Positions 8,953-28,155 of a stretch of 34,174 bases of DNA are shown here, piece after piece. Location: contig JBBTXK010000066.1 of NCBI GenBank assembly GCA_038062315.1, forward strand, positions 1-34,174. Reading direction: 5' to 3'. The translations under genes and the position numbers were made by a program. This stretch comes from Patescibacteria group bacterium (lineage in GTDB: Bacteria; Patescibacteriota; Microgenomatia; Levybacterales; UBA12049). The notes below the pieces were generated by a model that had not been told where the DNA came from, ran no database searches, and saw only the letters and a list, made by a program, of their open reading frames with translations. The first letter of the stretch is position 1; the number at the start of each line of letters is the position of its first letter.

Positions 8953-10677
8953 ATGAACTTAGCCAAGCCAAAAATTATACTTACAATAATTGTTATGCTT
9001 GCCGCAATTTTGCGGTTTTGGCAGTTGGGAACAAATCCGCTATCTCTTACTTGGGATGAAGCCTCCTGGGGTTATAACGCATATTCTCTAGGAATTGATG
9101 GCCGGGATGAATTTGGAAGATTTCTGCCTTTTGATTATTTAGAATCGTTTGGTGATTTTAAGCCTCCGATGTACGCCTATTTGGATATTGTTCCTATTTG
9201 GATATTCGGGTTAAATGAATTTGCCGTTAGGTTCCCGTCGGCGCTTTTTGGGACATTGACTGTACTTGTTACTTATTTTTTAGTAAAGAGATTGTTTTTT
9301 TCAACGCGAATAAATACGAGTGCCTTGGCATTACTTTCAGCATTTATTTTAGCAATATCTCCTTGGCATATTAATCTTTCTCGGGCGGCATTCGAAGCAA
9401 ATATTGCGACATTTTTTTTGATTTGCGGAGTGTGGCTTTTTTTGTGCGGTGTTTACGAACGAAAATGGTGTCTTGTCTTGTCAATAGCCTCTTTCGTATT
9501 ATCTTTATATACTTTTAACAGCGCCAGGGTTGTTGCCCCTATTTTGGTTTTAATTTTAGGAATAGGCTTTAGAAAAGAGCTCCTAGAACAAAAAAAACAT
9601 GCAATGATAGCATTAGTTGTTGGTATTTTATTAATATTGCCATCACTAAAGTTCTTTCTATCTTCGGAAGCAAACCTTCGTTTTAGAGAGGTTAATATTT
9701 TCTCAGATCCAAAAGTTATTGAAATTGCAAATCAGGAAATTGCAAACGATGGTAATGAATGGTGGTCAAAGATAATTCATAATAGACGATTTGCATATAC
9801 AGTCGCGTATCTAAGACACTATTTTGACAATTTTAACCCCAGCTTTCTTTTTATTAAAGGGGATGGGAATCCTAAATTCTCAACTCAAGATGTCGGACAG
9901 ATGTACTTATGGGATCTGCCGTTTTTAGTCGCTGGAGCATTTGTGCTGCTGCGAAAACGGGAAGGTTGCTGGTGGATAATATCTTTATGGTTGATAATTG
10001 GTATTATTCCGGCTGCTACCGCTCGTGAAACACACCATGCGTTACGAATAGAGGCCGCCTTGCCCACTTTCCAGATTTTGACCGCATATGGAGTTTTCAT
10101 TTTTGTTAATACAATATCAAATATCAATCGCCGATTGAATCTGGGACAAATAGCAAAAATACCTGCTTTGCCGGCAGGCAGGCAGATTAAATATTTAGTA
10201 TTGTCTTTGTGTTTTTTGTTTTTGATCTTTAATTTTTTATATTATTATCATGGTTATTATGCTCATTATCCAAGGGAGTTTTCCGGTGAATGGCAGTATG
10301 GATATAAAGACTCTATAGAATTTGTAGAAACTATCAAGGATGATTTTGATCAAATTAATGTAACGACACTCCTAGGGAGGCCTTATATATATTATCTTTT
10401 TTATACCAAAACCCATCCAGAGGATTTTAGGAGAACTGCGATTGTGCGAGAAGATCCATATGGCTTTACTCATGTAGATGGTTTTGGCGCTTACAAATTT
10501 GGAGATGATTTAAGTAAACTTGACAATGGAAATAAAAGAATTCTCTATGTGAATGTATCAGGCCGTTCTCCAAGAAAGGCAAATATATTTAAAACGGTAA
10601 AGCTATTAAACAATGATCCAGTGTTTACCATTTATGAGATAGTCCACATGCCAGAGGAGGAAAAGAAGAATGAATAA
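8953..10677 (+). CDS. GT-C fold polytopic membrane glycosyltransferase, PMT/ArnT-like (type-A paralog, first of tandem triplet)
   Basis: LAAILRFWQLG, TWDEASWGYNAYS, ISPWHINLSRAAFEAN, ETHHALRIEAALP and a C-terminal domain WQYGYKDSIEF..YYLFYTKTHPEDF..YKFG. Confidence 0.85.
   Translation: MNLAKPKIILTIIVMLAAILRFWQLGTNPLSLTWDEASWGYNAYSLGIDGRDEFGRFLPFDYLESFGDFKPPMYAYLDIVPIWIFGLNEFAVRFPSALFGTLTVLVTYFLVKRLFFSTRINTSALALLSAFILAISPWHINLSRAAFEANIATFFLICGVWLFLCGVYERKWCLVLSIASFVLSLYTFNSARVVAPILVLILGIGFRKELLEQKKHAMIALVVGILLILPSLKFFLSSEANLRFREVNIFSDPKVIEIANQEIANDGNEWWSKIIHNRRFAYTVAYLRHYFDNFNPSFLFIKGDGNPKFSTQDVGQMYLWDLPFLVAGAFVLLRKREGCWWIISLWLIIGIIPAATARETHHALRIEAALPTFQILTAYGVFIFVNTISNINRRLNLGQIAKIPALPAGRQIKYLVLSLCFLFLIFNFLYYYHGYYAHYPREFSGEWQYGYKDSIEFVETIKDDFDQINVTTLLGRPYIYYLFYTKTHPEDFRRTAIVREDPYGFTHVDGFGAYKFGDDLSKLDNGNKRILYVNVSGRSPRKANIFKTVKLLNNDPVFTIYEIVHMPEEEKKNE
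10113..10185 (+). repeat. in-frame mini-element E1: 2x AATATCA, a 15-bp palindrome, a GC hairpin and (GGCA)3
   Basis: AATATCA at 10113-10119 and 10120-10126. TCAATCG-C-CGATTGA at 10124-10138. CCTGC (10162-10166) pairs with GCAGG (10174-10178). GGCA x3 at 10173-10184. Translated as ISNINRRLNLGQIAKIPALPAGRQ; this loop is 12-15 aa longer than in the paralogs at 10670 and 12349. Confidence 0.65.
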
Positions 10678-12352
10678 AAAAAATATTGTTTTCTTAACCC
10701 TGATAGTAATAATAGCGTCTATCTTGAGACTATGGCAGTTAGGCAAAGTTCCTTCATCCCCTGACTGGGATGAGGTTGCATTGGGCTACAATGCGTATTC
10801 GATCATAGAGACAGGTCGGGATGAATATGGCAAGTTTATGCCTCTGTTACTTCGTTCCTTTGATGACTATAAACCGGCACTTTATACATACTTTTCGATT
10901 CCGTTCATAAGCATTTTGGGTTTAAATATCTTTGCTGTTCGTCTGCCCTCTGCTATTTTTGGCATACTGACGGTCGTCGTGACGTACTTTTTAGTGCGAG
11001 AATTATTTAAAGACTCGCGATTTAAATTGGAAGTTGGAAATTGGAAATTGGAAATTCCAGAAGTAACCAGTCTACTTCTGGCTATTTCTCCATGGCATAT
11101 TCAATTTTCTCGTATCGCCTTTGAGTCAAATGTTGCCATGGGGCTTAATGCGATTTCTATCTTGCTTTTTTTAAAAAGTTTTAAAAGACCATTTTTGCTA
11201 CTTTTTGCTGCAATTAGCATGGGGGTAAGTTTTTACATGTACCAAAGCGAGAAAGTATTTGTTCCGCTCCTTCTTATTATTTTAATACTTGTATTTAGAA
11301 AAGAACTTTTTATGATTCCTAAAAAATACAAAGTTGCTTCTGTCGCGATTATATTTTTCATAGCAATACCTATGATATATTATACTTTAACCAATTCCGA
11401 TGCGTTGGCTCGGGCAAAAGGAGTCAGTATCTTTTCTGATCTTACACCCTTTCTGAAAAGGAACGTAGAGAAACTCATAGAAGATAATAACAATAAAGAT
11501 TATTTAGGATTGTTTTTAGACAATAGGAGAATTGAGTTTGCTAAATCTGTAGTATCAGGTTATATTTCGCATTTTGACTTAAATTGGCTGTTTGTTACTG
11601 GCGATATAGAAAGACATCATGCCCCCAATATGGGGCTTTTATATCTATGGGAGCTACCATTTTTATTGATAGGCATGTATAGCCTATTGTTTGGGCCATT
11701 TGATAAGAAAATAAAAATTTTTATCATTTCATGGTTTTTGATAGTGCCTATTCCTGCTTCGGTAACAAGCGGAGTTCCCCATGCTGTACGAGCTCTTAAT
11801 TTTTTGCCGATCTTTCAAATATTTACAGCAATTGGGGTTATTAGTTTTGTAGTATTTATGTCAAATGTAAAATATAAAATAGCAAATATACGAATAGAAT
11901 ATTTGATATTTTATATGTATATTCTATTTTTAACTTTTAATATTTTATACTATCTTAACCAGTATTTTATCCAGCAAAACTACTTTTATTCACAAGCGTG
12001 GCAATACGGCTATAAAGATGCGATTGATTATTTAAACGAAAATCAAGACAAATACGATAAAATTATTGTTTCAAACCAGCCTCATTTAGACCAATCATAT
12101 ATGTTTTTCCTTTTTTATCTTAAATATCCACCGAGCTTATATCAGATAGAGGCAAAAAATTCATCGGGAGGTTTCAGGGAAAATCATAAATTCGGAAAGT
12201 TTGAGTTTAGGCCGATTGTTTGGGATAACGAAATCAAAAGATCAGATATTCTTTATGTAGGCAGACCTCAGGACTTTACAGGCGGTGTGGAAGCAATTAA
12301 AACTATAAATTTTCTCAATGGTAAACCTGCTATTCTAATAGTTACGGGATGA
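10670..12352 (+). CDS. GT-C fold polytopic membrane glycosyltransferase, PMT/ArnT-like (type-A paralog, second of triplet)
   Basis: ILRLWQLG, DWDEVALGYNAYS, ISPWHIQFSRIAFESN, GVPHAVRALNFLP, WQYGYKDAIDY..MFFLFYLKYPPSLYQ..HKFGKFEFRPIVW. The start overlaps the upstream stop by 8 nt. This is the only start in the window with a good upstream GAGGAGG. Confidence 0.85.
   Translation: MNKKNIVFLTLIVIIASILRLWQLGKVPSSPDWDEVALGYNAYSIIETGRDEYGKFMPLLLRSFDDYKPALYTYFSIPFISILGLNIFAVRLPSAIFGILTVVVTYFLVRELFKDSRFKLEVGNWKLEIPEVTSLLLAISPWHIQFSRIAFESNVAMGLNAISILLFLKSFKRPFLLLFAAISMGVSFYMYQSEKVFVPLLLIILILVFRKELFMIPKKYKVASVAIIFFIAIPMIYYTLTNSDALARAKGVSIFSDLTPFLKRNVEKLIEDNNNKDYLGLFLDNRRIEFAKSVVSGYISHFDLNWLFVTGDIERHHAPNMGLLYLWELPFLLIGMYSLLFGPFDKKIKIFIISWFLIVPIPASVTSGVPHAVRALNFLPIFQIFTAIGVISFVVFMSNVKYKIANIRIEYLIFYMYILFLTFNILYYLNQYFIQQNYFYSQAWQYGYKDAIDYLNENQDKYDKIIVSNQPHLDQSYMFFLFYLKYPPSLYQIEAKNSSGGFRENHKFGKFEFRPIVWDNEIKRSDILYVGRPQDFTGGVEAIKTINFLNGKPAILIVTG
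11024..11081 (+). repeat. in-frame mini-element E2: heptamer array (AAATTGG)4.7 plus a 9-bp-stem hairpin
   Basis: AAATTGG AAGTTGG AAATTGG AAATTGG AAATT at 11024-11056. This is followed by CCAGAAGTA (11057-11065), loop ACCAGTC, and TACTTCTGG (11073-11081). Translated as KLEVGNWKLEIPEVTSLL. Confidence 0.9.
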
Positions 12353-14088
12353 TAAAAGAATTTAGAATTAGGAATTTAGAATTAAGAGTTATTGTGTTTG
12401 TAATATGTATTCTTGCAGTGGCTTTGTTTTTACGAATATACTCACTTGATAAAGTTCCGCCCAGTGCTTCATTAGATGAGGTTTCAATTGGTTACAATGC
12501 CTATTCAATCCTCAAGACTGGAGGCGATGAATACGGAAATAAGTTTCCACCGCTTCTGCGCGCGTATGATGATTGGCGGCCAGCATTGTATGTATATTTG
12601 GTGATTCCCTTTATAAAGTTTTTCGACCTTACTGTACTATCTGTTCGTTTGCCTTCAGTTATTCTTTCGGTTTTTACAATTCTTGCTGTTTATTTTTTAG
12701 TAAAAGAAATGTTTAGACGGGAGTTCAAAGCTCAATTCCCGATTCAGTCGGGAACAAAACTCAAAACTGCAGCTCAAAATTCAAAAGTCGAAATAATTGC
12801 GCTTTTTTCTATGTTTTTGCTAGCTATTTCACCTTGGCATATTTATATATCAAGACTTGGACATGAGGTAAATGCCGGCCTTTCTTTTATTGTTTTTGCA
12901 ATTTTATTTTTTATAAAAGCAATCAATAATGCAGGGAAAGGATGGTTTTTAATTTTATCATCTATATTCTTCAGTCTTTCGTTATATACATATCAAAGTG
13001 AAAAAGTTTTTTTTCCCTTAGCGATATTGGTCCTTGGGCTTGTCTATAGAGATAGATTAGTTAAAATTATGAAGTCACTATTAATAGCTGTTATTTTAGC
13101 AGTTATACTTGTTATTCCTATAACGGTATCAACCCTAACTCCGGAAGGTTTAATTCGTTTTAAAGGCACCTCTGCTTTTTTGGAAAATTCTCTCTATCAG
13201 GAAAGCGCCGAGAAAGTTTTAAAATACAAAAATGAGAAAAACGTGTTGGGGCAGATTATTTACAATCGTAGACTAGTGCCTTTGAAAATATTCTCTACAA
13301 ATTATTTATCTCATTTTAGTCCTAAATTTCTTTTTTTCAACAGCGGAAACGAGAGCTTTAAGGCTCCAAGCCTCGGGTTACTCTATATCTGGGAGTTTCC
13401 TTTTTTAATTATTGGATTTATCTATTTGCTTAAATCATTCGGCAAAAAAATTAAACTAATACTTATTCTTTGGGTATTAATTGCCTTTGTTGCGCCTTCT
13501 TTAACAATTGGTTCTCCTCATGCAATGAGAGCGTTTAATGTTTTGCCTGTTCCTCAGATTTTTACAGCTCTTGGTATTTTTTTGTCGATTAATTTTATTA
13601 AAAAATATAAAATTAACCGTTATTTGTTGATCTGTTTTTATGTCTTAGGGCATATTGTTGTTATTTATTTTTTGGGAAGTTTTTATAGGCAGTATTTCTA
13701 TTCCTTCCCAAAAAACCAATCCTCTTCTTTTCAATATTCTTTGAGTAGTTCAATCAGATATGTTCTAGGTATTGAAAAATCCTATGACAAAATCGTTTTT
13801 TCGAATAAGGAAAATCTCTATCAGTCTTATATGTTTTATTTATTTTACAGCAAGTACGATGCTTATCTTTATCAAAAACAAGGCGGAACAGAGTCCGGAG
13901 GATTTGCACAAGAACATAAATTTGGGAAATATGAATTCAGACCAGTTGTCTGGAGCAAAGACCAGCTTATGTCTAACGCTTTGTTTATTGGAAATGTTTC
14001 AGACTTCCCCGGTGATGTGAATTCTGCAAAGAATTTTGCTAACTTGGATGGAAAGGAGGCAATTAAAGTTGTCCATAATAAAGAATAA
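12349..14088 (+). CDS. GT-C fold polytopic membrane glycosyltransferase, PMT/ArnT-like (type-A paralog, third of triplet)
   Basis: SLDEVSIGYNAYS, ISPWHIYISRLGHEVN, GSPHAMRAFNVLP, MFYLFYSKYDAYLYQ..HKFGKYEFRPVVW. ATGA overlap with the upstream gene. Confidence 0.85.
   Translation: MIKEFRIRNLELRVIVFVICILAVALFLRIYSLDKVPPSASLDEVSIGYNAYSILKTGGDEYGNKFPPLLRAYDDWRPALYVYLVIPFIKFFDLTVLSVRLPSVILSVFTILAVYFLVKEMFRREFKAQFPIQSGTKLKTAAQNSKVEIIALFSMFLLAISPWHIYISRLGHEVNAGLSFIVFAILFFIKAINNAGKGWFLILSSIFFSLSLYTYQSEKVFFPLAILVLGLVYRDRLVKIMKSLLIAVILAVILVIPITVSTLTPEGLIRFKGTSAFLENSLYQESAEKVLKYKNEKNVLGQIIYNRRLVPLKIFSTNYLSHFSPKFLFFNSGNESFKAPSLGLLYIWEFPFLIIGFIYLLKSFGKKIKLILILWVLIAFVAPSLTIGSPHAMRAFNVLPVPQIFTALGIFLSINFIKKYKINRYLLICFYVLGHIVVIYFLGSFYRQYFYSFPKNQSSSFQYSLSSSIRYVLGIEKSYDKIVFSNKENLYQSYMFYLFYSKYDAYLYQKQGGTESGGFAQEHKFGKYEFRPVVWSKDQLMSNALFIGNVSDFPGDVNSAKNFANLDGKEAIKVVHNKE
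12358..12385 (+). repeat. in-frame mini-element E3: four heptamers (14-nt unit GAATTTAGAATTA x2)
   Basis: GAATTTA GAATTAG GAATTTA GAATTAA, translated as EFRIRNLEL at codons 4-12 of the 12349 gene. The paralogs lack these roughly 9 N-terminal residues. Confidence 0.7.
12722..12795 (+). repeat. in-frame mini-element E4: heptamers flanking a 7-bp-stem GC hairpin
   Basis: AGTTCAA AGCTCAA (12722-12735). TTCCCGA-TTCAG-TCGGGAA (12736-12754). CAAAACT x2 (12755-12768), GCAGCT, then CAAAATT CAAAAGT CGAAATA (12775-12795). Translated as EFKAQFPIQSGTKLKTAAQNSKVEI. Confidence 0.75.
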
Positions 14089-15583: not shown

Positions 15584-15584
15584 A

Positions 15585-17234: not shown

Positions 17235-17242
17235 GAATTTAA

Positions 17243-18670: not shown

Positions 18671-18680
18671 TTATAACTGT

Positions 18681-19472
18681 ATGCAGACTATTTCGGTGGT
18701 TTTGGCAACGTATAACGAGGAGAAGAATTTGCCATTGTGTTTGAATTCGGTTAGGGATTTGGCAGATGAAATAATAATTGTTGATGGGTCATCGACAGAT
18801 AAAACTGTTGAGATTGCAACAAAGCATGGGGCAAAGGTCAAAGTTGCTGATAATCCTCCGATATTTCACATTAACAAACAAAAGGCCATAGATATGGCAA
18901 CAAAAGATTGGATATTGCAATTAGATGCTGACGAACGCATTACGCCAGAGCTCTCGGAAGAAATAAAAAAAATAATTGGAAATTGGAAATTGGAAATTGG
19001 AAATTCCGACGTAGTCGGCTATTGGGTTCCGAGGAAGAATTGGTTTTTAGGAAGATTTTTAATGAAGGGCGGGCAGTATCCAGATTACACTCTGCGGCTT
19101 TACAAAAGAGGCAAGGGAGGACTTCCTCAGAAAAGTGTTCATGAGCAAGCAGTGGTGAGAGGAAAAGTTGGTTATCTTAAAAATCCCTTGCTTCACTACC
19201 CTTATCAAAACTTCTGGGGATATCTTATTAAATGGAATCGATATAATGGTTTGCTCGCATATGAAATAAAAGAAAAGATGAAAGATAAAAATACCGCTTC
19301 GAAAATTTTATACTCAATGGGATATCTTTTGATAAAACCCTTGCATTGGTTTTTGATAACCTACATTAGGCACAAAGGCTTTTTGGACTCCTGGCAGGGA
19401 TTTTTGTTTTCAGTGTTTTCTGCTTTAAGGTTCCCTGTAGCGTATATAAAGTATTTAAGACTTAAGTCTTAA
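18681..19472 (+). CDS. GT2 family glycosyltransferase
   Basis: ATG 18681 (MQTISVVLATYNEEKNL) is preferred over the ORF-track start 18633, which overlaps the upstream gene. Motifs IIVDGSSTDKT, LQLDADE (DxD) and FLGRFLMKGGQYPDYTLRLYKRG. Contains the in-frame heptamer array at 18973-19005. Confidence 0.85.
   Translation: MQTISVVLATYNEEKNLPLCLNSVRDLADEIIIVDGSSTDKTVEIATKHGAKVKVADNPPIFHINKQKAIDMATKDWILQLDADERITPELSEEIKKIIGNWKLEIGNSDVVGYWVPRKNWFLGRFLMKGGQYPDYTLRLYKRGKGGLPQKSVHEQAVVRGKVGYLKNPLLHYPYQNFWGYLIKWNRYNGLLAYEIKEKMKDKNTASKILYSMGYLLIKPLHWFLITYIRHKGFLDSWQGFLFSVFSALRFPVAYIKYLRLKS
18973..19018 (+). repeat. in-frame mini-element E5: heptamer array (AAATTGG)4.7 plus a short hairpin
   Basis: TAATTGG AAATTGG AAATTGG AAATTGG AAATT at 18973-19005, then CCGAC-GTA-GTCGG at 19006-19018. 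The 35 nt 18973-19007 match 11024-11058 at 33/35 positions. Translated as IGNWKLEIGNSDVVG in the GT2 gene. Confidence 0.9.
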
Positions 19473-19493
19473 AAATTTAAAAGCTTATAAACT

Positions 19494-20492: not shown

Positions 20493-21013
20493 AGTTCTGT
20501 TTATGGATGCTCTTTTTGATAAATTTCCTTTTTTTTAAGACTACTGCCTCTTTTGCAGAATCAGGTTATGTTCTGCCGTACCCTCCGCAAATGCCTGGGA
20601 GTTTTATGTATAAATTGAGGCTCGCTTCAGAGGAGATACAAAAGTACTGGTATTTTGGTGATTTTGGGCAGTTTACATATAGTCTCAAACAGGCAGATAA
20701 GTATTTGGTAGAAGCAAAAACGCTTTTTGAGTATAAGCAATATTTACTTGGGATTCAAGCATTAAAAAAATCAGATACATATTTTACTAATACTTTTTCC
20801 TGGATGATAAAAGCGAAGAAAAAGCATAAAGATATTGTTCAGAAACAAAAAGTACTCAAAAGCGCAACTTTGAAGCATATCGAACTTCTTAATCAATTAA
20901 AGCTGAATGTTCCCGAAACTTTTGTTTGGCGACCCGAAAAACTATCACCAACAGTTCTCAACCTTAAAAAAGCAATTGATGAATCAATTCCTGTAAGAAA
21001 CAAATATCTATGA
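20489..21013 (+). CDS. small exported or membrane-anchored helical protein (hypothetical; resembles DUF5667-type proteins)
   Basis: ATG 20489 forms an ATGA overlap with the galE stop; TTG 20462 of the ORF track lies inside galE. It has an N-terminal hydrophobic signal or anchor (MKFCLWMLFLINFLFF) followed by YVLPYPPQMPGSFMYKLRLASEEI and a helical remainder. The family assignment is from memory only. Confidence 0.55.
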   Translation: MKFCLWMLFLINFLFFKTTASFAESGYVLPYPPQMPGSFMYKLRLASEEIQKYWYFGDFGQFTYSLKQADKYLVEAKTLFEYKQYLLGIQALKKSDTYFTNTFSWMIKAKKKHKDIVQKQKVLKSATLKHIELLNQLKLNVPETFVWRPEKLSPTVLNLKKAIDESIPVRNKYL

Positions 21014-22146
21014 AAAAATTACTATTTCTTATTTATTCACTTTTTTTAGTATGCTTAACTTTTTTTTCTTATTTATTTGTTGACCAAAACCTTAGCTATC
21101 TTCACGGATTATATTCAGGTGCAGCTTCTAACTATAGGAGTCAAGTCACTTTTTTGTACATTTTAATTATTTTTTTATTTTTTACTTTTTATTTTTTACT
21201 TTTATGGTTGATAAAAAAAAGGCATCTAGTGGGTAAAGAAGTAGTTTCGTTGATTTTTATCACGGTGATTTTTACATTCTTTTCTTATCCCTCCATGCTT
21301 TCTTATGACATCTTCAATTACATAACAACCGCAAAAGTTCTATTTAATTATCATGAAAATCCGTACATTATTATGCCGATTGAATTTGTAAATGATCCAT
21401 ACCTTTTGTTTACTCATGCTGCTAACAAAATAGCGTTGTATGGTCCTTTTTGGACTCTTCTTTCAGGTATTCCATATTTGTTGGGTTTTGGGAATTTTTT
21501 GCTTGCTCTTTTTAATTTTAAGCTTATGACTGTTCTTTTTTATATTGGAGTAAACTATTTTGTTTGGAAGATTTCAAAGAATATGTTTTCTGTCGCGCTG
21601 TTTTCTCTGAATCCGCTGGTTGTCATAGAAACACTTGTTTCAGGACACAATGATATTGTGATGATGTTTTTTACAATTTCGTCTTTTTTCTTTTTAACAA
21701 AAAAAAAATTTCGTCTTTCGGTTATATTTTTTGTTATGTCTATTTTTATTAAATACACGACTATTGTTCTAATCCCAGTTTTTATTTATATCTTTTGGCA
21801 AACACTAAGAAAAAAAACAGTCGATTGGAAAAAAACTTTTTATCTTTCGTCACTTTTGATGCTTGCAGCATTTTTTCTTTCTTCCATTCGAGAAGAAATT
21901 TATCCTTGGTATGCAATATGGTTTTTGGTGTTTGTAAACCTTATTCCTCAAAAGAGAATATTATTGTATCTCTCATTTGCTCTTTCTTTTGGTTTGCTCT
22001 TAAGGTACGTGCCCTTTATGTTGTTTGGTACTCATTTTGGCGTAACGCCCTTTGTAAAGACTGCTTTGACTTTTACTCCTACATTTTTTGTTTTAATATA
22101 CATATTCTTCAAAGATAAATTATGGTTAAAAATATTTTCCCGATAA
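21010..22146 (+). CDS. GT-C-like polytopic membrane protein, GT87/DUF2029-like (polyprenyl-phosphate-sugar dependent mannosyltransferase type)
   Basis: ATGA overlap with the upstream gene. Motifs SYDIFNYITTAKVLFNYHENPY, YGPFWTLLS and SGHNDIVMMFF, reminiscent of PimE/MptA-type GT-C enzymes; about 10 TM segments. Confidence 0.55.
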   Translation: MKKLLFLIYSLFLVCLTFFSYLFVDQNLSYLHGLYSGAASNYRSQVTFLYILIIFLFFTFYFLLLWLIKKRHLVGKEVVSLIFITVIFTFFSYPSMLSYDIFNYITTAKVLFNYHENPYIIMPIEFVNDPYLLFTHAANKIALYGPFWTLLSGIPYLLGFGNFLLALFNFKLMTVLFYIGVNYFVWKISKNMFSVALFSLNPLVVIETLVSGHNDIVMMFFTISSFFFLTKKKFRLSVIFFVMSIFIKYTTIVLIPVFIYIFWQTLRKKTVDWKKTFYLSSLLMLAAFFLSSIREEIYPWYAIWFLVFVNLIPQKRILLYLSFALSFGLLLRYVPFMLFGTHFGVTPFVKTALTFTPTFFVLIYIFFKDKLWLKIFSR

Positions 22147-23780
22147 TAATAGTTGGAGTGTTTGGTTTTATCGCTGGGTTAAGCCTTCTCCATAAAGGAT
22201 TGCCTCCAACTCATGATGGTGAGTATCATGTTGTAAGATTTTATGAATTCAACAAAGCTTTTTTAGATGGAAACTGGTATCCGCGATGGGCGCAAGATCT
22301 TAATAATGGATATGGGATTCCTCTTTTTAATTTTGTTTATCCTTTCCCAAACTACGTGGCAGTTATTTTTCATTCATTTGGAATAAGTTTTATTGATGCT
22401 TTTAAGTACGAAATGTTTATGGCCATAATGCTCGGCGGATTATTTTTCTATCTTTGGACTAAAGATTTTTGGGGGAAATTGGGGGCAATGGTATCTTCTG
22501 TTTTTTATACTTTTTCTCCTTATCATTTTTTAGATATTTATATTAGAGGATCAGTAGGAGAGGTATGGGCCCTAGCATTTTTTCCAGCATTTTTGTGGTC
22601 AATCACAGAGTTTATAAAATATCATCAGAGAACATTCCTTGTTCTTTCTTCGATTTCTCTAAGCCTTATTATTTTCTCTCATAATATTTTGGCGCTAATG
22701 TTCTTGCCTTTTTCTGTGACATACATTTATTTTTTAATTTATCATTCAAAAGATAAGAAGCAATTAATACTTAATACTTTTTACGTAATACTTCTAGGGT
22801 TTGGTTTGTCGGCGATTTTTTGGTTACCTGCTCTTTTGGAAAGACAATATGTAGCCGGGCTTCAGATATTTGACGTTTTAGCTCATTTTCCAGAATTTTA
22901 TGAGCTAATTGTTCCTTCTTGGGGTTCTGGGTTTTCGGCCGGAGGCCTACAGAATCAGCTCTCTTTTCAGATAGGAATTGCCAATTTGACTGCGGTATTT
23001 ATATCGCTACTCATTTTTTTATCTGGTAAGAAAAAGGATAAAAATCGTTTAATTTTGTTGTTTTTTCTTGTTTGGTTTGTCCTTATAGTTTTTTTGATGC
23101 TCAAAATTTCCAGTTCAATCTGGCAATACATTCCTTTCATGAACTATTTTCAATTTCCATGGCGGTTACTAAGTCTCGAAATACTTATCGCATCATTTCT
23201 GGCTGGAGGCGTTGTTTATCATTGGAAAAAAATACTGCTGGTGATATGTTTAATAACTTTTTCTTTTCTCTTGGGAATAGGATACACAAACCCTGCGTAT
23301 TATCATTATAGAAATGACAATTATTACTTAGCAAGAGCTAATTTTATTGATGGAACAAATAGTCCTGGAAATTCTTTTAATACGATCTGGATGAAAAGAA
23401 GTTTGGGGAGAGAAAAAGAGAAGATAAAATTTTTAAAGGGAGAAGGAGAAGTTAACGCATTATCAGCAATATCGACACACTATAAATTTAATGTTGTTGC
23501 ACGCAAACCTTCAGAAATGGTTGTCAATATTGCTTATTTTCCTGGATGGACAGTGTTTGTTGATAGACAAAAGAAAAAGATAAAATACAACAGCGACGGG
23601 CTGATTAATTTTTTGATTCCTGCAGGCAAACATTCAATAGATGTAATATTGTTAGACACGGATATTCGAAAATTGGCATCTCTTGTTACTATTATTTCAG
23701 CGTTATATAGCATTGTAGTTTTGACAAACCCCTTAATGGGTGTTTTATGGAGAAAATGGAGATCACAAAATAAGTATTAA
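22122..23780 (+). CDS. GT-C-like polytopic membrane protein, PTPS-related/YfhO-like (type-B paralog)
   Basis: Full-length paralog of 15585-17234 with THDGEYHVVRFYEF, YPRWAQDLNNGYGIPLFNFVYPFPNY, FQFPWRLLS and YFPGWTVFVD..AGKHSIDVIL. Overlaps the upstream gene by 25 nt. Confidence 0.7.
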   Translation: MVKNIFPIIIVGVFGFIAGLSLLHKGLPPTHDGEYHVVRFYEFNKAFLDGNWYPRWAQDLNNGYGIPLFNFVYPFPNYVAVIFHSFGISFIDAFKYEMFMAIMLGGLFFYLWTKDFWGKLGAMVSSVFYTFSPYHFLDIYIRGSVGEVWALAFFPAFLWSITEFIKYHQRTFLVLSSISLSLIIFSHNILALMFLPFSVTYIYFLIYHSKDKKQLILNTFYVILLGFGLSAIFWLPALLERQYVAGLQIFDVLAHFPEFYELIVPSWGSGFSAGGLQNQLSFQIGIANLTAVFISLLIFLSGKKKDKNRLILLFFLVWFVLIVFLMLKISSSIWQYIPFMNYFQFPWRLLSLEILIASFLAGGVVYHWKKILLVICLITFSFLLGIGYTNPAYYHYRNDNYYLARANFIDGTNSPGNSFNTIWMKRSLGREKEKIKFLKGEGEVNALSAISTHYKFNVVARKPSEMVVNIAYFPGWTVFVDRQKKKIKYNSDGLINFLIPAGKHSIDVILLDTDIRKLASLVTIISALYSIVVLTNPLMGVLWRKWRSQNKY

Positions 23781-23791
23781 ATTACAATTGA

Positions 23792-23800
23792 TGATATAAT
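23792..23800 (+). promoter_or_regulatory. candidate extended -10 promoter element (TGATATAAT) upstream of the GT4 gene
   Basis: TGATATAAT lies in the 35-bp gap, 15 nt before ATG 23816. The 11-mer GATGATATAAT is identical to 32832-32842. No convincing -35. Confidence 0.35.
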
Positions 23801-23815
23801 CAAACCTCTAAGAAT

Positions 23816-24886
23816 ATGAGAATTGCAATTGATGTTTCACCGTTAACAAGTAAGAAGTCTTTGCAGCATAGGGTAAGGGGAACAGGTTTTTATATAGAAT
23901 ATCTAAAGAAGCATCTAGTAAGTTATTATCCTAATAATCAGTATATTTTTTTTACTCGAGGAGAAAAAATACCCGAAAATGTTGACTTGGTACACTATCC
24001 TTATTTCGAGCCATTCTTTCTAACACTTCCTTTTGCCAGAAAATATAAGGCAGCGGTAACAGTTCATGATCTTACTCCTCTTGTATTTCCGAGGAATTTT
24101 CCATCAGGATTACGAGGAATAATAAAATGGAAAATTCAAAAATTTCTTTTAGAAAAAATAGATGCACTTATTGCCGATTCAGAGTCTTCAAAAAATGATA
24201 TATTGAAATTTACAAATATTCCTGAAAATAAAATTCATGTAGTTTATCTTGCGGCATCGCCTTCTTTCAAAAAGATAAATACCTCAGCACTTCAAAGCAT
24301 TAAGCAGAAATATAAATTGCCTGATAAATTTGTTCTCTATGTTGGTGATGTAACGTGGAATAAAAATCTGCCAAGACTTGTTGAGGCTATTAAAAAAATT
24401 AACTTAACAATGGTAATGATTGGAGCGGCTTTAGTTCGGAAGGATTTTGATTGGACTAATCCCTGGAATCAAGATTTGTTTAGCGTTATAAAATCAATAG
24501 GAAACGATAGGAGATTTATAAGGCATGGGTTTATTCCAGCAAAAGATTTGGTCGTTATTTATAACCTAGCAACAGTTTTTGCGATGCCCTCTCTTTATGA
24601 GGGATTTGGTTTACCAATTTTAGAAGCAATGTCTTGCGGATGTCCTGTCGTCGCGTCTAAGAACGGATCAATTCCTGAAGTGGCAGGAGGCGGAGTATAT
24701 TATGTTGATCCGTATGATATTAACGAACTTGCAAACGGCATTGGTGAGGTTTATTTTAATCAAAAACTGCGAAAGGAACTTGCTTTGAAAGGTCTTGCTC
24801 AAGCCAAAAAGTTTTCATGGGAAAAAACAACAAAAAAAACCATAGATGTCTACCGATCAGTAGTAAATCATTCTAGCATTAGTTAG
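23816..24886 (+). CDS. GT4 family (GT-B fold) glycosyltransferase
   Basis: MRIAIDVSPL, VHDLTPLVFP, FVLYVGDVTWNKN, MPSLYEGFGLPILEAMSCGCPVVASKNGSIPEV (EX7E region). Confidence 0.85.
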   Translation: MRIAIDVSPLTSKKSLQHRVRGTGFYIEYLKKHLVSYYPNNQYIFFTRGEKIPENVDLVHYPYFEPFFLTLPFARKYKAAVTVHDLTPLVFPRNFPSGLRGIIKWKIQKFLLEKIDALIADSESSKNDILKFTNIPENKIHVVYLAASPSFKKINTSALQSIKQKYKLPDKFVLYVGDVTWNKNLPRLVEAIKKINLTMVMIGAALVRKDFDWTNPWNQDLFSVIKSIGNDRRFIRHGFIPAKDLVVIYNLATVFAMPSLYEGFGLPILEAMSCGCPVVASKNGSIPEVAGGGVYYVDPYDINELANGIGEVYFNQKLRKELALKGLAQAKKFSWEKTTKKTIDVYRSVVNHSSIS

Positions 24887-24924
24887 CAATATTTGGTAAC
24901 ATTGTTTTGATGTTGGAATTTTAA

Positions 24925-24953
24925 TTGAACATTGCATGATTTTTTTGTATCTT
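24925..24953 (+). promoter_or_regulatory. candidate sigma70-type promoter (TTGAAC-17 nt-TATCTT) upstream of the GT2 gene
   Basis: Located in the largest + strand gap (72 bp). The -10 ends 5 nt before ATG 24959, which would imply a leaderless or near-leaderless mRNA. Confidence 0.3.
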
Positions 24954-24958
24954 CGTAA

Positions 24959-25723
24959 ATGCAAAACATAAACTTATTATCCCTTGTTGTTCCAGCCTAC
25001 AAGCAAGAAAGGACGATCTTAAAAAATATAGAAAGCCTTGACAAAGTTTTGTCTGAAACTCCTTATAAGTATGAGATAATTGTTGTTGTTGATGGGTTTA
25101 TGGATAACACTTTCGAAAATGCGAAAAGAATTAATAAAAAAAATATTAAAGTTCTGGGGTATGAAAAAAATCAGGGAAAAGGACACGCTGTAAGATACGG
25201 CATGCTAAGAGCAAAAGGAGATGTTATCGGATTTATGGATTCAGGAATGGATATAAATGCGACAGGAATTTCTATTCTCTTAGATTATATGTTATGGCAG
25301 GATGCGGATATCATGATTGGGAGCAAGCTGCATCCCGAATCAAAGGTAAATTATCCAATATTTAGGAAAGTATTGTCTTGGGGCTACAGAACCTTGACTC
25401 ATTTATTTTTTGGGTTTAAGGTTCGCGATACTCAGGTAGGTTTAAAATTTTTCAAAAGAGATGTAGTTGAGAAAATATTCCCAATGCTTTTAGTTAAAGC
25501 TTTCGCTTTTGATGTGGAGGTTTTGGCTGTTTCAAGCGCTTACGGGTATAAAAAAATTTATGAAGGACCTGTACAGCTCAATTTCAATAAGATTAGCAGC
25601 ATTACGACTAAAAATTTTTGGGTAATAGTATTTCTTATGCTTTGGGATACATTGGCAATTTTTTACAGATTAAAAATTCTCAGGTTTTATAAGATAAAAG
25701 ATATGAGAAATGTTAGAAAATGA
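24959..25723 (+). CDS. GT2 family, polyprenyl-phosphate glycosyltransferase type (Dpm1/GtrB-like)
   Basis: LSLVVPAYKQE, YEIIVVVDGFMDNT, NQGKGHAVRYGMLRAKGDVIGFMDSGMD and RDTQVGLKFFKR (equivalent to the D-x-Q-x-GFK motif of this subgroup). Confidence 0.75.
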   Translation: MQNINLLSLVVPAYKQERTILKNIESLDKVLSETPYKYEIIVVVDGFMDNTFENAKRINKKNIKVLGYEKNQGKGHAVRYGMLRAKGDVIGFMDSGMDINATGISILLDYMLWQDADIMIGSKLHPESKVNYPIFRKVLSWGYRTLTHLFFGFKVRDTQVGLKFFKRDVVEKIFPMLLVKAFAFDVEVLAVSSAYGYKKIYEGPVQLNFNKISSITTKNFWVIVFLMLWDTLAIFYRLKILRFYKIKDMRNVRK

Positions 25724-26991
25724 GAAAAATAATTAATTTGGCATTTAGACATCCTTTGATTTCCGGAAGCACTGTTATTTTTTTTGGCTCAATGACAGCC
25801 AACATACTTAACTATGTTTTTAATTTAGGCACGGGAAGACTTCTCTCGCACTCCGACTACGGCACACTAATATCTCTTGTTTCCGTATTTAATATTTTTT
25901 CTGTTTTTTCAATTACGATTTCTACTGTTTTCGCGAAGTTTTCTGCCGTGTACGTAGGCCAAAAGAAGGAACAATTGCTCTTGCCTCTTTTTGTTTCTGG
26001 AAGTATGTGGATTGGAATAATATCTGTCTTTGTAGCCATGATAATGATTATTTTTTCTTCACAAATATCACAATTCCTCAATATCAGTTCCGTATTCCTA
26101 GTTAATATTGTAGCTCTTTCTTTGTTTTTTTCGTATTTATCTTCTGTTGGGGTTGGAATTTTACAGGGGTTATTAAAATTTGGATATTACTCTTTCATCA
26201 ATATATTTTCTTCTTTAGTAAAACTTGCACTAGGTATGTTTCTTATTTTCTTTGGGCTCAAGGTTTTAGGGGGAATAGCTGCATTTTTTATATCCATCTT
26301 AGTTGCCTATCTTCTTACCCTTCCTCCAATTTATAGGTTGATGAAAAGAAAAAGCGGAAGTCTTTCTATTCAAAATTTGTTTAGCAAACTTTCTCTTTAC
26401 GGTCTTCCGGTTTTTTTGTCAAATATTGGTATTACTGCATTTATAACTATCGACATCATCTTAGTTAAACATTTTTTTGATCCCGCAGTCGCAGGACAAT
26501 ATTCAGCCATTTCAATTATGGGAAGATCTATTTTTTTTGTAGTTTCTCCAATCACGCTAGTTTTGTTTCCTCTAGTTGCCCAAAAAAAGGAAAGAAAAGA
26601 AGATTTAACAGGGATAGTTTTATTATCACTTTTTCTTGTTGCTGTTCCTGCGGTTCTACTTAGTTTTATTTATTTTATTTTTCCAGAGATAGTTCGCAAT
26701 GTGTTTTACCCTTCTTATGAGGCAAGACTTCTAAATCCATATCTTGGACAGTTTTCGATTTTTATATTGTTTTATGCTTTTATCTATCTTTTGAATTTAT
26801 TTTATCTTTCGATTGGCAAGACTAAGGTTTATATTTTAACTATTTTGGGGTCGGTTTTGGAGATCGTTCTCATTTATTTTTTCCATAAGGATATTGGGCA
26901 GATCATAAATAGCTTGATAACAAGCTCTTTTTTACTTCTTGTTAGTCTTTTGTTGTATTTGCCAAAGGCTACAAAAGATTCTAAAGATTAA
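25720..26991 (+). CDS. MOP/Wzx-type oligosaccharide or polysaccharide flippase
   Basis: 423 aa, hydrophobic throughout (about 12 or more TM segments). The N-terminal pattern ANILNYVFNLGTGRLLSHSDYGTLISLVS is typical of polysaccharide-biosynthesis (Wzx/MurJ superfamily) proteins. ATGA overlap with the GT2 gene. Confidence 0.6.
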   Translation: MRKIINLAFRHPLISGSTVIFFGSMTANILNYVFNLGTGRLLSHSDYGTLISLVSVFNIFSVFSITISTVFAKFSAVYVGQKKEQLLLPLFVSGSMWIGIISVFVAMIMIIFSSQISQFLNISSVFLVNIVALSLFFSYLSSVGVGILQGLLKFGYYSFINIFSSLVKLALGMFLIFFGLKVLGGIAAFFISILVAYLLTLPPIYRLMKRKSGSLSIQNLFSKLSLYGLPVFLSNIGITAFITIDIILVKHFFDPAVAGQYSAISIMGRSIFFVVSPITLVLFPLVAQKKERKEDLTGIVLLSLFLVAVPAVLLSFIYFIFPEIVRNVFYPSYEARLLNPYLGQFSIFILFYAFIYLLNLFYLSIGKTKVYILTILGSVLEIVLIYFFHKDIGQIINSLITSSFLLLVSLLLYLPKATKDSKD

Positions 26992-27001
26992 TTTGTTTAT
27001 T

Positions 27002-28138
27002 ATGCGTATTTTAATTTTTAATTGGAGAGACATAAAGAACCCAGCCTCTGGAGGAGCTGAGATTTTAACCCACGAAATGGCGAAGCGTTGGGTTGGGCAA
27101 AAACATCAAGTAACCCTTTTTACTTCGAAGTTTGATGATGGTAAAGAGACAGAGGTTGTAGATGGTGTAAAGATTATCCGCAAGGGAACATGGTGGACGG
27201 TGCATATATACGCATTTTTCTACTACACAATATATTTAAAAAAAAATACAGATATAATAATTGACGAAGTACATTTTTTTCCTTTTTTTTGTGTCCTTTA
27301 TGCGAGGAAAAAAACCATTGCCTTAGTATGTGAGGTTGCAAACAAACTCTTCTTTACGCTCTTTCCTTATCCTATTGCATTATTGGGAAGAGCGGCTGAA
27401 AAAATATATCTTTGGATGTATAGAAATGTCCCAACGATGGTAATTTCTCCATCAACAGAAAAGGATTTAATAAAAGAAGGACAGAGAAAAGACATAATTC
27501 GTGTTTTGACCTTAGGCATCTCTTATCCTAAAGGCTTAAAAATTCACAAGAAAGAAAATAAACAAACAATTATTTATCTGGCAAGAATAAATAAGCAAAA
27601 AGGAGCGCTGGAAGCAATTGAAGCATTTTCCATTGTTGAAAAAGAAATTGCAAATTGCCAGTTATGGATTGTAGGTTCAGGAGTCTCAGATTATATTACG
27701 ATGTTACGCAAAAAAATCAGTGATTATAAAATTGTTCATTCCGTAAAATTCTTAGGTTTTGTTTCAGAGAAACGAAAGTTCGAGCTTTTATCAAAGGCTC
27801 ATATACTTATTGTTCCGTCAGTACATGAGGGCTGGGGATTGACTGTTCCCGAAGCAGGGTCAGTGGGTACACCAGCAATTGTATATGATGTTCCCGGTCT
27901 TCGTGATGTGGTTAGAGATGGAATAAATGGCATTATTGTAAATAAGACCCCTGCACATCTTGCGGAAGGAATTAGAGAAGTTTTTACAAATAAAAGTAAA
28001 TATCAAGCATTATGCAATGGCGCAAAGAAAGAAAGCGAGAAATATAATTGGGACAAGACAGCAGAAGTCGCATTAGAAGTATTAAATTCGAAGTTAGAAT
28101 TTCCCGCTTCGCAGCGAGGCAAGGGAAATCCGAAATAA
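27002..28138 (+). CDS. GT4 family (GT-B fold) glycosyltransferase
   Basis: ATG 27002 (MRILIFNWRDIKNPASGGAE) is preferred; the ORF-track start 26939 lies inside the flippase gene. VPSVHEGWGLTVPEAGSVGTPAIVYDVPGLRDVV (EX7E region). The last 16 codons are formed by repeat element E6. Confidence 0.85.
   Translation: MRILIFNWRDIKNPASGGAEILTHEMAKRWVGQKHQVTLFTSKFDDGKETEVVDGVKIIRKGTWWTVHIYAFFYYTIYLKKNTDIIIDEVHFFPFFCVLYARKKTIALVCEVANKLFFTLFPYPIALLGRAAEKIYLWMYRNVPTMVISPSTEKDLIKEGQRKDIIRVLTLGISYPKGLKIHKKENKQTIIYLARINKQKGALEAIEAFSIVEKEIANCQLWIVGSGVSDYITMLRKKISDYKIVHSVKFLGFVSEKRKFELLSKAHILIVPSVHEGWGLTVPEAGSVGTPAIVYDVPGLRDVVRDGINGIIVNKTPAHLAEGIREVFTNKSKYQALCNGAKKESEKYNWDKTAEVALEVLNSKLEFPASQRGKGNPK
28084..28129 (+). 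repeat. in-frame mini-element E6: heptamers plus a composite GC hairpin, forming the C-terminal tail of the GT4 gene
   Basis: AAATTCG AAGTTAG AATTT (compare AAATTGG AAGTTGG AAATT in E2). Outer stem ATTTCCC (28099-28105) pairs with GGGAAAT (28123-28129). Inner stem GCTTCGC (28106-28112) pairs with GCGAGGC (28114-28120), with one G-T pair. Translated as NSKLEFPASQRGKGN. Confidence 0.75.
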
Positions 28139-28155
28139 TAAAAGTTAAAATTTAA

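Follow-up and report, generated by a model that had tools for sequence, protein, structure and literature searches.

Heptamer-repeat and palindromic insertions within the glycosyltransferase genes of a Levybacteria-like Patescibacteria contig

The window analyzed here is a whole contig of 34,174 bp (JBBTXK010000066.1 of assembly GCA_038062315.1) from the metagenome-assembled genome (MAG) of an uncultivated, ultra-small Patescibacteria member whose nearest named relatives are Candidatus Levybacteria, and it carries a glycosyltransferase (GT) cluster. Six short segments within it, E1–E6, had been proposed from the sequence alone to be copies of one dispersed mobile family, in which an array of A/T-rich heptamers is joined to a G+C-rich hairpin. 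We find that E1–E6 are real DNA-level insertions, yet they are not a single element family. On balance, we favor an origin in three linked DNA-level processes that would act across these genomes of the Candidate Phyla Radiation (CPR), filtered by selection for keeping the reading frame, rather than in the copying of one element.

Results

DNA-level insertions within open reading frames

We compared the window with loci fetched from metagenomes and other genomes (L-numbers), among them the syntenic relatives L002/L003, L004/L005, L006/L007, and L170–L174, whose proteins are 54–81% identical to those of the window; independent samples assembled in JGI, ENA, and Logan yielded identical structures. 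Paralogues inside the window align at only 30–39% identity and are weak evidence taken alone. The significance of hairpins was assessed by folding DNA against 200 dinucleotide shuffles. The sequence-only reading correctly placed all six segments inside open frames and correctly identified their tandem heptamers: Tandem Repeats Finder (TRF) reports period-7 arrays at 10113–10127, 11024–11056, 12356–12391, and 18974–19005, with a decayed one at 28139–28164. E1–E6 and the further segment at 11858–11893 are all given on the plus strand.

E1, proposed as a single element, is in fact two separate inserts, one of 18 nt and one of 21 nt. The first, E1a (10120–10137), is in frame (NINRRL) and is missing in L173, L174, and L002. 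A duplicated heptamer (AATATCA ×2, 10113–10127) leads into the perfect palindrome TCAATCG-C-CGATTGA (10124–10138; stem 7, loop 1), and against L173 (75% identity) the insert appears as a duplicated ATATCAA unit running into the palindrome. The second, E1b (10162–10182), is a GC-rich palindrome of 21 nt, CCTGCTTTGCCGGCAGGCAGG (PALPAGR), cleanly inserted: its empty site in L173 has near-identical flanks (CAA ATA GCA AAA ATA / CAG ATT AAA TAT TTA) without the 21 nt, and L002 and L174 do not have it either. In the GT-C paralogue p2 (gene 10670–12352), E2 comprises an (AAATTGG) ×4.7 array (11024–11056) and a hairpin with a 9-bp stem (11057–11081; CCAGAAGTA-accagtc-TACTTCTGG). Compared to L002, the E2 insert is 33 nt (~11030–11062; EVGNWKLEIPE), and it is missing from the L173 and L174 orthologues as well. 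The left arm of the hairpin (CCAGAA) lies in inserted DNA; its loop and right arm consist of VTSLLLA codons native to the conserved LLAISPWH helix. E3 (12356–12393; GAATTTA/GAATTAG × ~5), at the junction of the p2 stop and the p3 start, has no hairpin; it is a ~33-nt in-frame insert after codon 3 of gene 12349–14088 and is missing in L173, L174, and 29 further orthologues, as well as in L002. E4 (12715–12792) is a decayed heptamer tract (AGTTCAA AGCTCAA ... CAAAACT CAAAACT ...) before LLAISPWH in paralogue p3, interrupted by the 19-nt hairpin TTCCCGA-ttcag-TCGGGAA (12736–12754). Its peptide, REFKAQFPIQSGTKLKTAAQNSKVE, occurs in 0 of the 29 closest orthologues (55–72% identity), two of which (P0128 and P0131) have an E2-type array cassette at the E4 loop instead. 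E6 (28084–28164), likewise a decayed tract (AAATTCG AAGTTAG AATTT ... GAAATCC GAAATAA TAAAAGT ...), spans the 3′ end of a GT4 gene, its stop codon (28136–28138), and the spacer to the next gene, with the 23-nt GC palindrome CCCGCTTCGCAGCGAGGCAAGGG as its core (28103–28125); the closest GT4 orthologue stops 14–17 residues earlier, without the E6 tail.

Thus, E1–E4 and E6 are lineage-specific, frame-preserving insertions tolerated in proteins, as had been suggested, and orthologues without each of them exist. E5 is shared by many relatives and is not lineage-specific. It consists of a perfect (AATTGGA) ×4.6 array (18974–19005) in a GT2 gene (18633/18681–19472; the database copy begins downstream of the TTG start) and a hairpin, CCGAC-gta-GTCGG (19006–19018), in which the arm next to the array repeats the native GTC GG(C) codons in inverted form. 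The array translates to GNWKLEIGN, which is common to many GT2 orthologues at 67–78% identity. In an AlphaFold2 model of this protein (mean pLDDT 82), the E5 peptide falls between a helix (residues 89–100) and a strand (residues 111–120), with pLDDT below 50 at residues 102–106, a prediction consistent with a surface loop.

Folding supported the proposed hairpins unevenly. E2 (z = −4.7) and E4 (z = −4.2) were more stable than every shuffle (0/200 as stable in each case), E5 (z = −2.8, 2/200) and E6 (z = −2.1, 6/200) were marginal, and the E1 segment (z = −0.1, not significant) and the hairpin-free E3 folded no better than shuffles. The six segments share an architecture and no extended common sequence, contrary to the idea of a sequence family with a fixed AATTCC junction; the junction GGAAATTCC occurs three times in the window versus 0.5 expected, a count reached in 2 of 100 shuffles.

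In an unselected survey of ten gene pairs between the window and the syntenic L173 locus, we counted 13 indels of at least two residues, at least nine of which were, in our judgment, heptamer-periodic and/or palindromic. Micro-insertions dominate protein length change between the contig and L173. A further heptamer-periodic segment, one of several reported by TRF that had not been listed (11858–11893; ATGTAAA/AAATATA; TRF 11858–11890), contains a five-residue insert relative to L173 (IANIR, 11879–11893).

Heptamer periodicity and one-unit polymorphism

The repeats are specifically heptameric. The sequence AAATTGGAAATT, with at most one mismatch, occurs 10 times in the window compared to 2.3 ± 1.5 times in shuffles, none of 100 of which reached 10. 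Among perfect arrays of at least three units in the window, L002, L004, and L006, six had period 7, none had period 5, 6, or 8–12, and four had period 4; in 186 kb of loci unselected for heptamers, five arrays had period 7 and none had any other period from 5 to 12.

L002 and L003 represent the same population in two samples (20 substitutions in 20.8 kb), and their sole internal indel is one AAATTCA unit (L002 13257–13263), located where the 3′ end of an epimerase gene meets the start of a DUF5667 gene. This one-unit change shifts both open reading frames (ORFs), the epimerase from 331 to 347 residues and the next gene from 188 to 140 residues. The same junction has (AAAAATG)5 in L004 and an AAAAATT-type array in L173. 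The intragenic GT2 arrays showed no copy-number difference within the L002/L003, L004/L005, and L006/L007 pairs.

Stepwise differences at the GT2 site and the loop before LLAISPWH

At the GT2 site of E5, L170 has one unit (AAAATTGG AAATTCC) and L002 has this state plus exactly three units, in both cases without a junction hairpin. The window has the L002 array plus GAC GTA, which completes the CCGAC-gta-GTCGG hairpin, and L172 has the same hairpin with two point mutations in the array. The array is broken by a 36-nt nested GC hairpin in L006, where the junction hairpin is CCCAT-gtca-ATGGG instead, and by CCCGCTTCGCCGCGAGGCGAGGG in L004; L171 has another perfect heptamer, (CAATCGT) ~4.6 units, at the same position. 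That GT2 lineages sharing an array differ in their hairpins suggests that the hairpin followed the array. Third-codon identity between the window and GT2 orthologues is 0.41–0.49, which is effectively saturation; the window and L002 nevertheless share an identical 35-nt array. A hand calculation from codon-position identities gives a chance of ~4 × 10−7 for neutral retention. Given this identity despite saturation, either regeneration with homogenization or a constraint acting on the DNA itself would be needed to keep the GT2 arrays perfect.

The loop preceding the LLAISPWH helix is a hotspot, holding E2 in p2 of the window and E4 in p3. In L173 and L174, the E2 array-plus-hairpin cassette is located in p3 and differs from that of the window only at synonymous sites, p2 and p3 being only ~32–40% identical. 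In L173, moreover, p2 carries an (AATTTTC)n array in place of E2, and p1 has an AAATTGG array where the p1 gene of the window has none.

AAATTGG arrays in other genomes

We scanned both strands of one genome per GTDB species (596 Gb) with the 19-mer AAATTGGAAATTGGAAATT and found the AAATTGG array in at least 120 contig stretches, compared to ~4 chance matches by a rough estimate; the expectation that further copies exist outside the window was thus borne out, both for these arrays and for the E6 core described below. Among the matches listed, hosts comprise dozens of CPR lineages and MAGs labelled Acidobacteriota, Planctomycetota, Nitrospirae (65% G+C), Gemmatimonadota, Bacteroidota, and archaea. 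At the CPR-labelled loci among them, open frames of at least 200 residues contain 46 of the 53 arrays, and 38 of these 46 belong to genes on the opposite strand, where the unit reads CCAATTT and the peptide is PISNFQF (38:8, p = 9 × 10−6); the AAATTGG arrays of the window have the minority orientation relative to the gene. Local GC skew and gene orientation are confounded at these loci, which therefore do not separate replication from transcription as the cause of this bias. Even between deeply diverged orthologues, arrays are found in the same loop of MnmA, PolA, LeuRS and other aminoacyl-tRNA synthetases, Fmt, KsgA, TsaD, TopA, MurE, GT2, and GT4. AAATTGG has no stop in any of six frames, being one of the 35 heptamer classes that are stop-free on both strands among the 192 with five A/T, and every frame of a heptamer array yields the same seven-residue peptide. 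Phased decay of AAATTGG units into the flanks gave no signal at CPR loci (0.25 on both sides), and the 5′ flank of the arrays retains period-7 self-similarity.

Some matches have unusual configurations. In KsgA/RsmA, L046 and L047 carry the array in the same loop in opposite orientations (IENWKLIENCKLEIGN versus FSIFNFQFSNNFQFPISN), which suggests in-situ inversion or independent insertions. Several non-CPR MAGs (Deltaproteobacteria-like and unclassified) contain a palindromic module of gccgttcacggctt, the array, ~25 nt, an inverted array, and ccgtgaacgg, in a compact form (L018, L051, L062, L068, L094, L103) or an expanded form (L028, L056, L080, L102), and some of these modules have 170–400 nt between the arrays. 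A small ORF lies just downstream of the array in L056; its product, first taken for a four-helix-bundle protein of the kind encoded in 23S intervening sequences, had no match in Pfam or NCBIfam, and we withdrew this identification. At the LeuRS site that holds the array in L106 and L123, L021 has a long GC-rich insertion (translation CHCEESEGRRSNPVGNDNNSGSPRPDGARDDGG) that resembles concatenated GC palindromes of another family. The AAATTGG array is also carried by 19 IMG/VR contigs classed as viral (L151–L169), three giant-virus MAG bins among them. A search of IMG/VR with the E2 junction returned a single match, L175, which has no array and was set aside as a chance match.

Locally derived hairpins at one edge of AAATTGG arrays

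Perfect hairpins are not in excess across the window as a whole (47, compared to 53 ± 10 in shuffles), and a GC-spike scan of the window was uninformative; the significance of the hairpins comes from their co-location with arrays. Among the matches listed, a perfect stem of at least 8 bp adjoins the 3′ edge of 12.1% of 124 AAATTGG arrays, compared to 2.4% for the 5′ edge and 1.5% for random positions (3′-edge stems versus controls, Fisher p = 3 × 10−7). The stems adjoining these arrays are 7–13 bp with loops of 3–7 nt, their sequence differs by locus, and 18 of 41 begin exactly after GGAAATT. All are perfect, with no tolerance of G–T pairs or mismatches; continual arm-to-arm correction would keep them so. 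A general link between hairpins and heptamers was considered and rejected, as 61 arrays of other units showed no association; the link is confined to AAATTGG.

Hairpin polarity is strict and the hairpins are local in origin. Wherever a protein motif or an empty site reveals which arm is native, the arm nearer the array proves to be the other, non-native one. In E2, CCAGAA copies native TTCTGG, and E5 and L006 follow the same pattern. The native arm consists of DNASTDDS codons in the GT2 gene of L070 and of WIGKSEG codons in the LeuRS gene of L123, where the copy overwrites variable residues without any change in length. In MnmA, L009 and L097 share the site but not the hairpin, which in either locus is complementary to the HYxR codons of that locus. 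The pattern is one that template switching, by snap-back or cross-fork copying, would be expected to produce. The proposal of one dispersed heptamer-plus-hairpin mobile family is not supported: the hairpins beside AAATTGG arrays differ at every locus and are inverted copies of the native codons next to them, not part of a transposing unit.

A dispersed 23-nt palindrome

Among the palindromes, dispersed-repeat behavior is limited to the E6 type. The core pattern CCCGCTTCGCNGCGAGGCNAGGG was found in 23 metagenome stretches, which together with the window represent 16 sequence contexts, nearly all in CPR-like contigs of 33–49% G+C, within ORFs, and on either strand. Its translations in several frames include PASPRGEG, PSPRGEAG, LASLRSGE, RLAAKRV, and PLRREARA, and this use of several frames and both strands indicates that the conserved entity is the DNA rather than the peptide. 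About half of the copies are nested between two more GC hairpins (cccgccNNNNggcga ... ctcgccNNNNggcgg), and others lie in heptamer-like contexts, as in the window and in L004, where a copy interrupts the orthologous E5 array. By eye, neither the core, CCCGCTTCGC(N)GCGAGGC(N)AGGG, nor the 16 sets of flanks contains a GTAG/CGTC tag. No other exact copy of the E1b or E4 hairpins was present among 150 fetched loci, and a generic E4-like pattern, TCCCG(N7)CGGGA, matched in only five loci. By eye alone, the E1b 21-mer and the E4 hairpin resemble the E6-type palindrome.

Other features of the contig

The contig has a G+C content of 29–37% and is nearly all coding, on the plus strand. By Pfam scan, its products include many paralogous GT-C (PMT_2) membrane glycosyltransferases, GT2 and GT4 enzymes, an epimerase, and a DUF5667 protein. 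Between 69 and 18670, nine ORFs belong to GT-C Pfam families (PMT_2/PMT) and a tenth to PTPS_related, with one of the ten on the minus strand; a methyltransferase and an ORF without a Pfam match are interleaved with them. This gene order is kept in L002, L171, L173, and L174, and the loop before the LLAISPWH motif is repeatedly remodelled. The GT4 ORF listed from a TTG at 26939 (26939–28138) probably starts at the ATG at 27002 (MRILIFNWRD...), as in all orthologues. Two period-7 tracts occur in membrane-protein genes: TTTTTTA within the 14-mer TTTTTATTTTTTAC ×2.3 at 21171–21203, without an indel relative to L173, and TTAATAC ×4.3 at 22764–22793. The former may simply be T-rich coding sequence for transmembrane segments. 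Pfam identified no transposase family among the 20 ORFs of the contig that were scanned, and Rfam gave no family match in the window.

Discussion

A model of slippage, template switching, and palindrome copying

Our preferred explanation, which we consider probable on balance, comprises three linked processes, and the enzymology we infer is slippage, template switching, and the copying of GC palindromes. In the first process, tandem 7-nt units would arise and change copy number by replication slippage, as microsatellites resembling the short tandemly repeated repetitive (STRR) sequences of cyanobacteria. Gains of three units (21 nt) or of compensated lengths would survive in permissive loops, protein termini, and gene junctions, and would be tolerated because a heptamer array gives the same peptide in every frame and AAATTGG is stop-free. 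Repeated slippage or conversion would keep arrays perfect by concerted evolution, and the unit sequence would turn over at a fixed site. In the second, the replicating strand would switch template at the 3′ boundary of (AAATTGG)n, after ...GGAAATT, and copy a short piece of the neighboring unique sequence, from a few to 13 nt, in reverse orientation, so that a perfect local hairpin would be made or overwritten with its new arm proximal to the array. In the third, copies of GC palindromes of 19–23 nt would enter arrays and the loops of other hairpins, producing nesting, with the E6 core as the clear case. No function in the host protein would be needed, and selection would filter only for frame integrity and tolerant positions.

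Several observations weigh against this model. It offers no mechanistic explanation for a unit of 7 nt, and slippage from local seeds poorly explains why the same AAATTGG unit occurs in Nitrospirae of 65% G+C, in Planctomycetota, and in other MAGs. Among the matches listed, array size is rather uniform (~4–4.7 units) and 74 of 120 perfect arrays have the end phase GGAAATT. In TopA (L084 versus L128), native residues have given way to the array at nearly constant length, which is not simple slippage. A generic tendency of simple sequence repeat (SSR) boundaries to promote template switching does not predict a hairpin association specific to AAATTGG. Because the E2 cassette lies in a different paralogue in L173 and L174, whole cassettes also move between paralogues, via gene conversion or insertion/transposition. 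Taken together, the unexplained 7-nt period, the AAATTGG-specific hairpins, the uniform size and end phase, the strand bias, and the high-GC hosts would fit a dedicated insertion activity equally well.

Alternative explanations

A bolder interpretation, which we think rather unlikely, is that (AAATTGG)n with a one-sided, target-derived hairpin is the footprint of an undescribed, sequence-specific activity of DNA synthesis or insertion (a target-primed, repeat-adding polymerase or reverse transcriptase, or a hairpin-directed HUH nuclease) that would act on one replication strand in many bacterial phyla and would keep writing and rewriting short peptide-coding blocks within essential CPR genes, or else is a selected genomic signal. 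If either were true, heptamer repeats, unexplained since 1990, would become mechanistically tractable.

Improbable in our assessment is a mobile mini-element, in which a preformed block of ~4.5 units ending in GGAAATT would be inserted by an enzyme acting on single-stranded DNA (HUH/Y1 as in IS200/IS605–REP, or a target-primed polymerase or reverse transcriptase) that duplicates the target in inverted form on one side, with the GC palindromes as a second, non-autonomous family. Such an element would account for the uniform array size and fixed end phase, for the strict polarity of the hairpins and their confinement to AAATTGG, and for the 38:8 strand bias relative to the gene in CPR, which is expected of insertion into one replication strand. 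The presence of AAATTGG in many phyla, some with genomes of 65% GC, and in the 19 IMG/VR contigs also favors it, as do identical 23-nt palindromes in unrelated contexts and a cassette common to paralogues. In none of the loci, however, was an associated gene, a terminal repeat, or a direct target duplication seen, and the very same sites also host arrays of many other heptamer units. The one-unit strain polymorphism, moreover, is in-situ slippage, the one-unit state of L170 fits the expansion of a seed, and the GT2 lineages share an array but differ in its hairpin.

We find it quite unlikely that the heptamer tracts are contingency loci that switch surface glycosylation by frameshifting slippage, in the manner of Haemophilus lipooligosaccharide tetranucleotides; tetranucleotide tracts in Haemophilus glycosyltransferase genes are an example of simple-sequence contingency loci (PMC12721329). 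The window is indeed a glycosyltransferase cluster, five of the six elements are in GT-C, GT2, or GT4 genes, some of them at gene starts or ends (E3, E6), and the slippage of one unit between strains, at a tract in such a cluster, alters the C-terminus of an epimerase and the start of the next gene. This length variation between close populations was seen in the relative pair L002/L003, not in the window. The tracts are short (~4 units), intragenic copy number is constant at the GT2 site in three strain pairs, and the hairpins and GC palindromes are left unexplained. Nor are the arrays restricted to dispensable genes: other CPR carry them in the generally essential LeuRS, PolA, TopA, MnmA, TsaD, Fmt, KsgA, and MurE, in which an OFF state should be lethal.

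No more convincing is a cis-acting DNA or RNA signal with both array and hairpin kept perfect by selection, be it for replication, segregation, or uptake, for the pausing or processing of mRNA, or as a weak two-tetrad G-quadruplex built from four GG tracts. Perfect conservation despite saturated synonymous sites would be expected of such a signal, and the same loop is used in deeply diverged orthologues with stems that differ yet remain paired (L009, L097). Substitutions in the E2 cassette fall only in the loop, there is a strand bias, and the preference for four units matches that of the quadruplex-forming heptamers of Xanthomonas and Nostoc (PMC4692102). Against this, the elements are wholly missing from many close orthologues, and the unit sequence, and even its orientation, differs at one site (KsgA in L046/L047; p2 in L173). 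Perfection of all stems fits recent templating better than long-term selection, and the window has no Rfam match.

That nothing special is involved, only low-complexity coding sequence with chance hairpins or assembly artefacts, is very improbable: the hairpin count of the window equals that of shuffles, E1 and E3 fold ordinarily, and the paralogue alignments are weak, but orthologue comparisons already contradict it with clean empty sites between near-identical flanks, enrichment is exclusive to period 7, independent samples agree, and the at least 120 stretches found versus ~4 by chance and the hairpin adjacency at 3′ edges argue against it.

Relation to known repeat systems

The earlier statement that no equivalent has been described was too strong, as cyanobacterial STRR heptamers, heptameric SSRs, and palindromes inside ORFs are all comparable. 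STRR heptanucleotide arrays with nested small dispersed repeats (SDR4–6), hairpins of 21–27 nt, were reportedly described in Nostocaceae by Mazel in 1990 and by Elhai and colleagues in 2008 (Genome Res 18:1484); later papers mention them as well (PMC5861425, PMC3116915). Known STRR units of heterocystous cyanobacteria are CCCCAGT, TTGGTCA, and CAACAGT. The likeness extends to dispersed 7-nt tandems, to hairpin repeats of 21–27 nt inside arrays and inside each other, to presence or absence at orthologous loci, and to the lack of a known associated transposase. In the loci studied here, dispersed tandem 7-nt arrays occur with several unit types (AAATTGG, AATATCA, GAATTTA, and others), the 23-nt E6 core is one family of hairpin repeat within the SDR size range and present in many loci, and GC hairpins lie inside heptamer arrays and are nested (E6 and E4 in the window; L004 and L006; the cccgccNNNNggcga and ctcgccNNNNggcgg hairpins). 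The differences are that the hosts are Patescibacteria and other uncultivated phyla rather than Nostocaceae, that the units are AT-rich, that most CPR copies lie in long frames, including those of housekeeping genes, and that one end of the array is flanked by a unique hairpin of local template origin.

Many bacteria have an excess of heptameric SSRs, among them GGGAATC in Xanthomonas and GGGGA(T/C)T in Nostoc, with a preference for four units (Rehm et al., 2015, PMC4692102; Mrazek, 2007, cited there). Our arrays share with them the 7-nt unit, its shape (G-run, A-run, T), a length of about four units, occasional inverted pairs, and a wide phylogenetic spread. The Xanthomonas and Nostoc SSRs are G-rich, quadruplex-forming, intergenic, and under-represented in coding DNA (PMC4692102), whereas 46 of the 53 CPR arrays among the matches listed lie in open frames of at least 200 residues and their GG tracts would at best form a weak two-tetrad structure.

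Rickettsia palindromic elements (RPEs) and repetitive extragenic palindromes (REPs) tagged with GTAG/CGTC occur inside ORFs, including those for tRNA synthetases and DNA repair, and inactivating insertions are purged (Di Nocera et al., 2013, PMC3733652). The resemblance lies in palindromes that are in frame within functional genes and tolerated as extra peptide, and here too the interrupted ORFs stay intact. RPEs, however, are sequence families of ~100–150 bp, whereas the present elements are 18–78 nt and their hairpins differ by locus, and REPs are 20–40 bp, carry the GTAG/CGTC tag, and in many cases are associated with RAYT (Y1) transposases, whereas the palindromes here are 19–23 nt and untagged. 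Most hairpins here, unlike either class, are unique local copies, and heptamer arrays are integral to the elements. Miniature inverted-repeat transposable elements are larger (70–300 bp) and have terminal inverted repeats and direct target duplications, whereas the inserts here are 18–33 nt (E4 <80 nt) and the comparisons with empty sites revealed neither feature.

Quasipalindrome-templated mutagenesis, or template switching, and short-patch double illegitimate recombination have reportedly been observed as rare events in E. coli and Acinetobacter, in work by Ripley, the Lovett laboratory, and Harms and colleagues in 2016. Shared features are inverted repeats created or perfected by arm copying, segments replaced without net change in length, and ectopic copying guided by microhomology. 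Compared to those rare events, the products here are numerous, always belong to the same end of a specific heptamer array, and have become fixed in many genes. A literature search that included the literal repeat sequence returned nothing on heptamer arrays or in-frame palindromes in CPR/Patescibacteria.

Implications for CPR genomes

These insertions put extra peptides (KLEIGNW/PISNFQF and PASPRGEG) into glycosyltransferases and, elsewhere in the CPR, into aminoacyl-tRNA synthetases, PolA, TopA, and MnmA. Annotation, alignment, and phylogenomics of the CPR are affected, as such segments can be mistaken for lineage-specific protein features. One-sided hairpins complementary to lineage-specific native codons provide a natural archive of template-switch events, arrays that stay perfect although synonymous sites have saturated clearly exemplify concerted evolution within coding sequence, and the one-unit strain polymorphism is a potential population marker. 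Finally, an exclusive 7-nt periodicity in the unrelated Nostocaceae and CPR reopens the question of how heptamer repeats originate, with many independent loci at which it can be tested.

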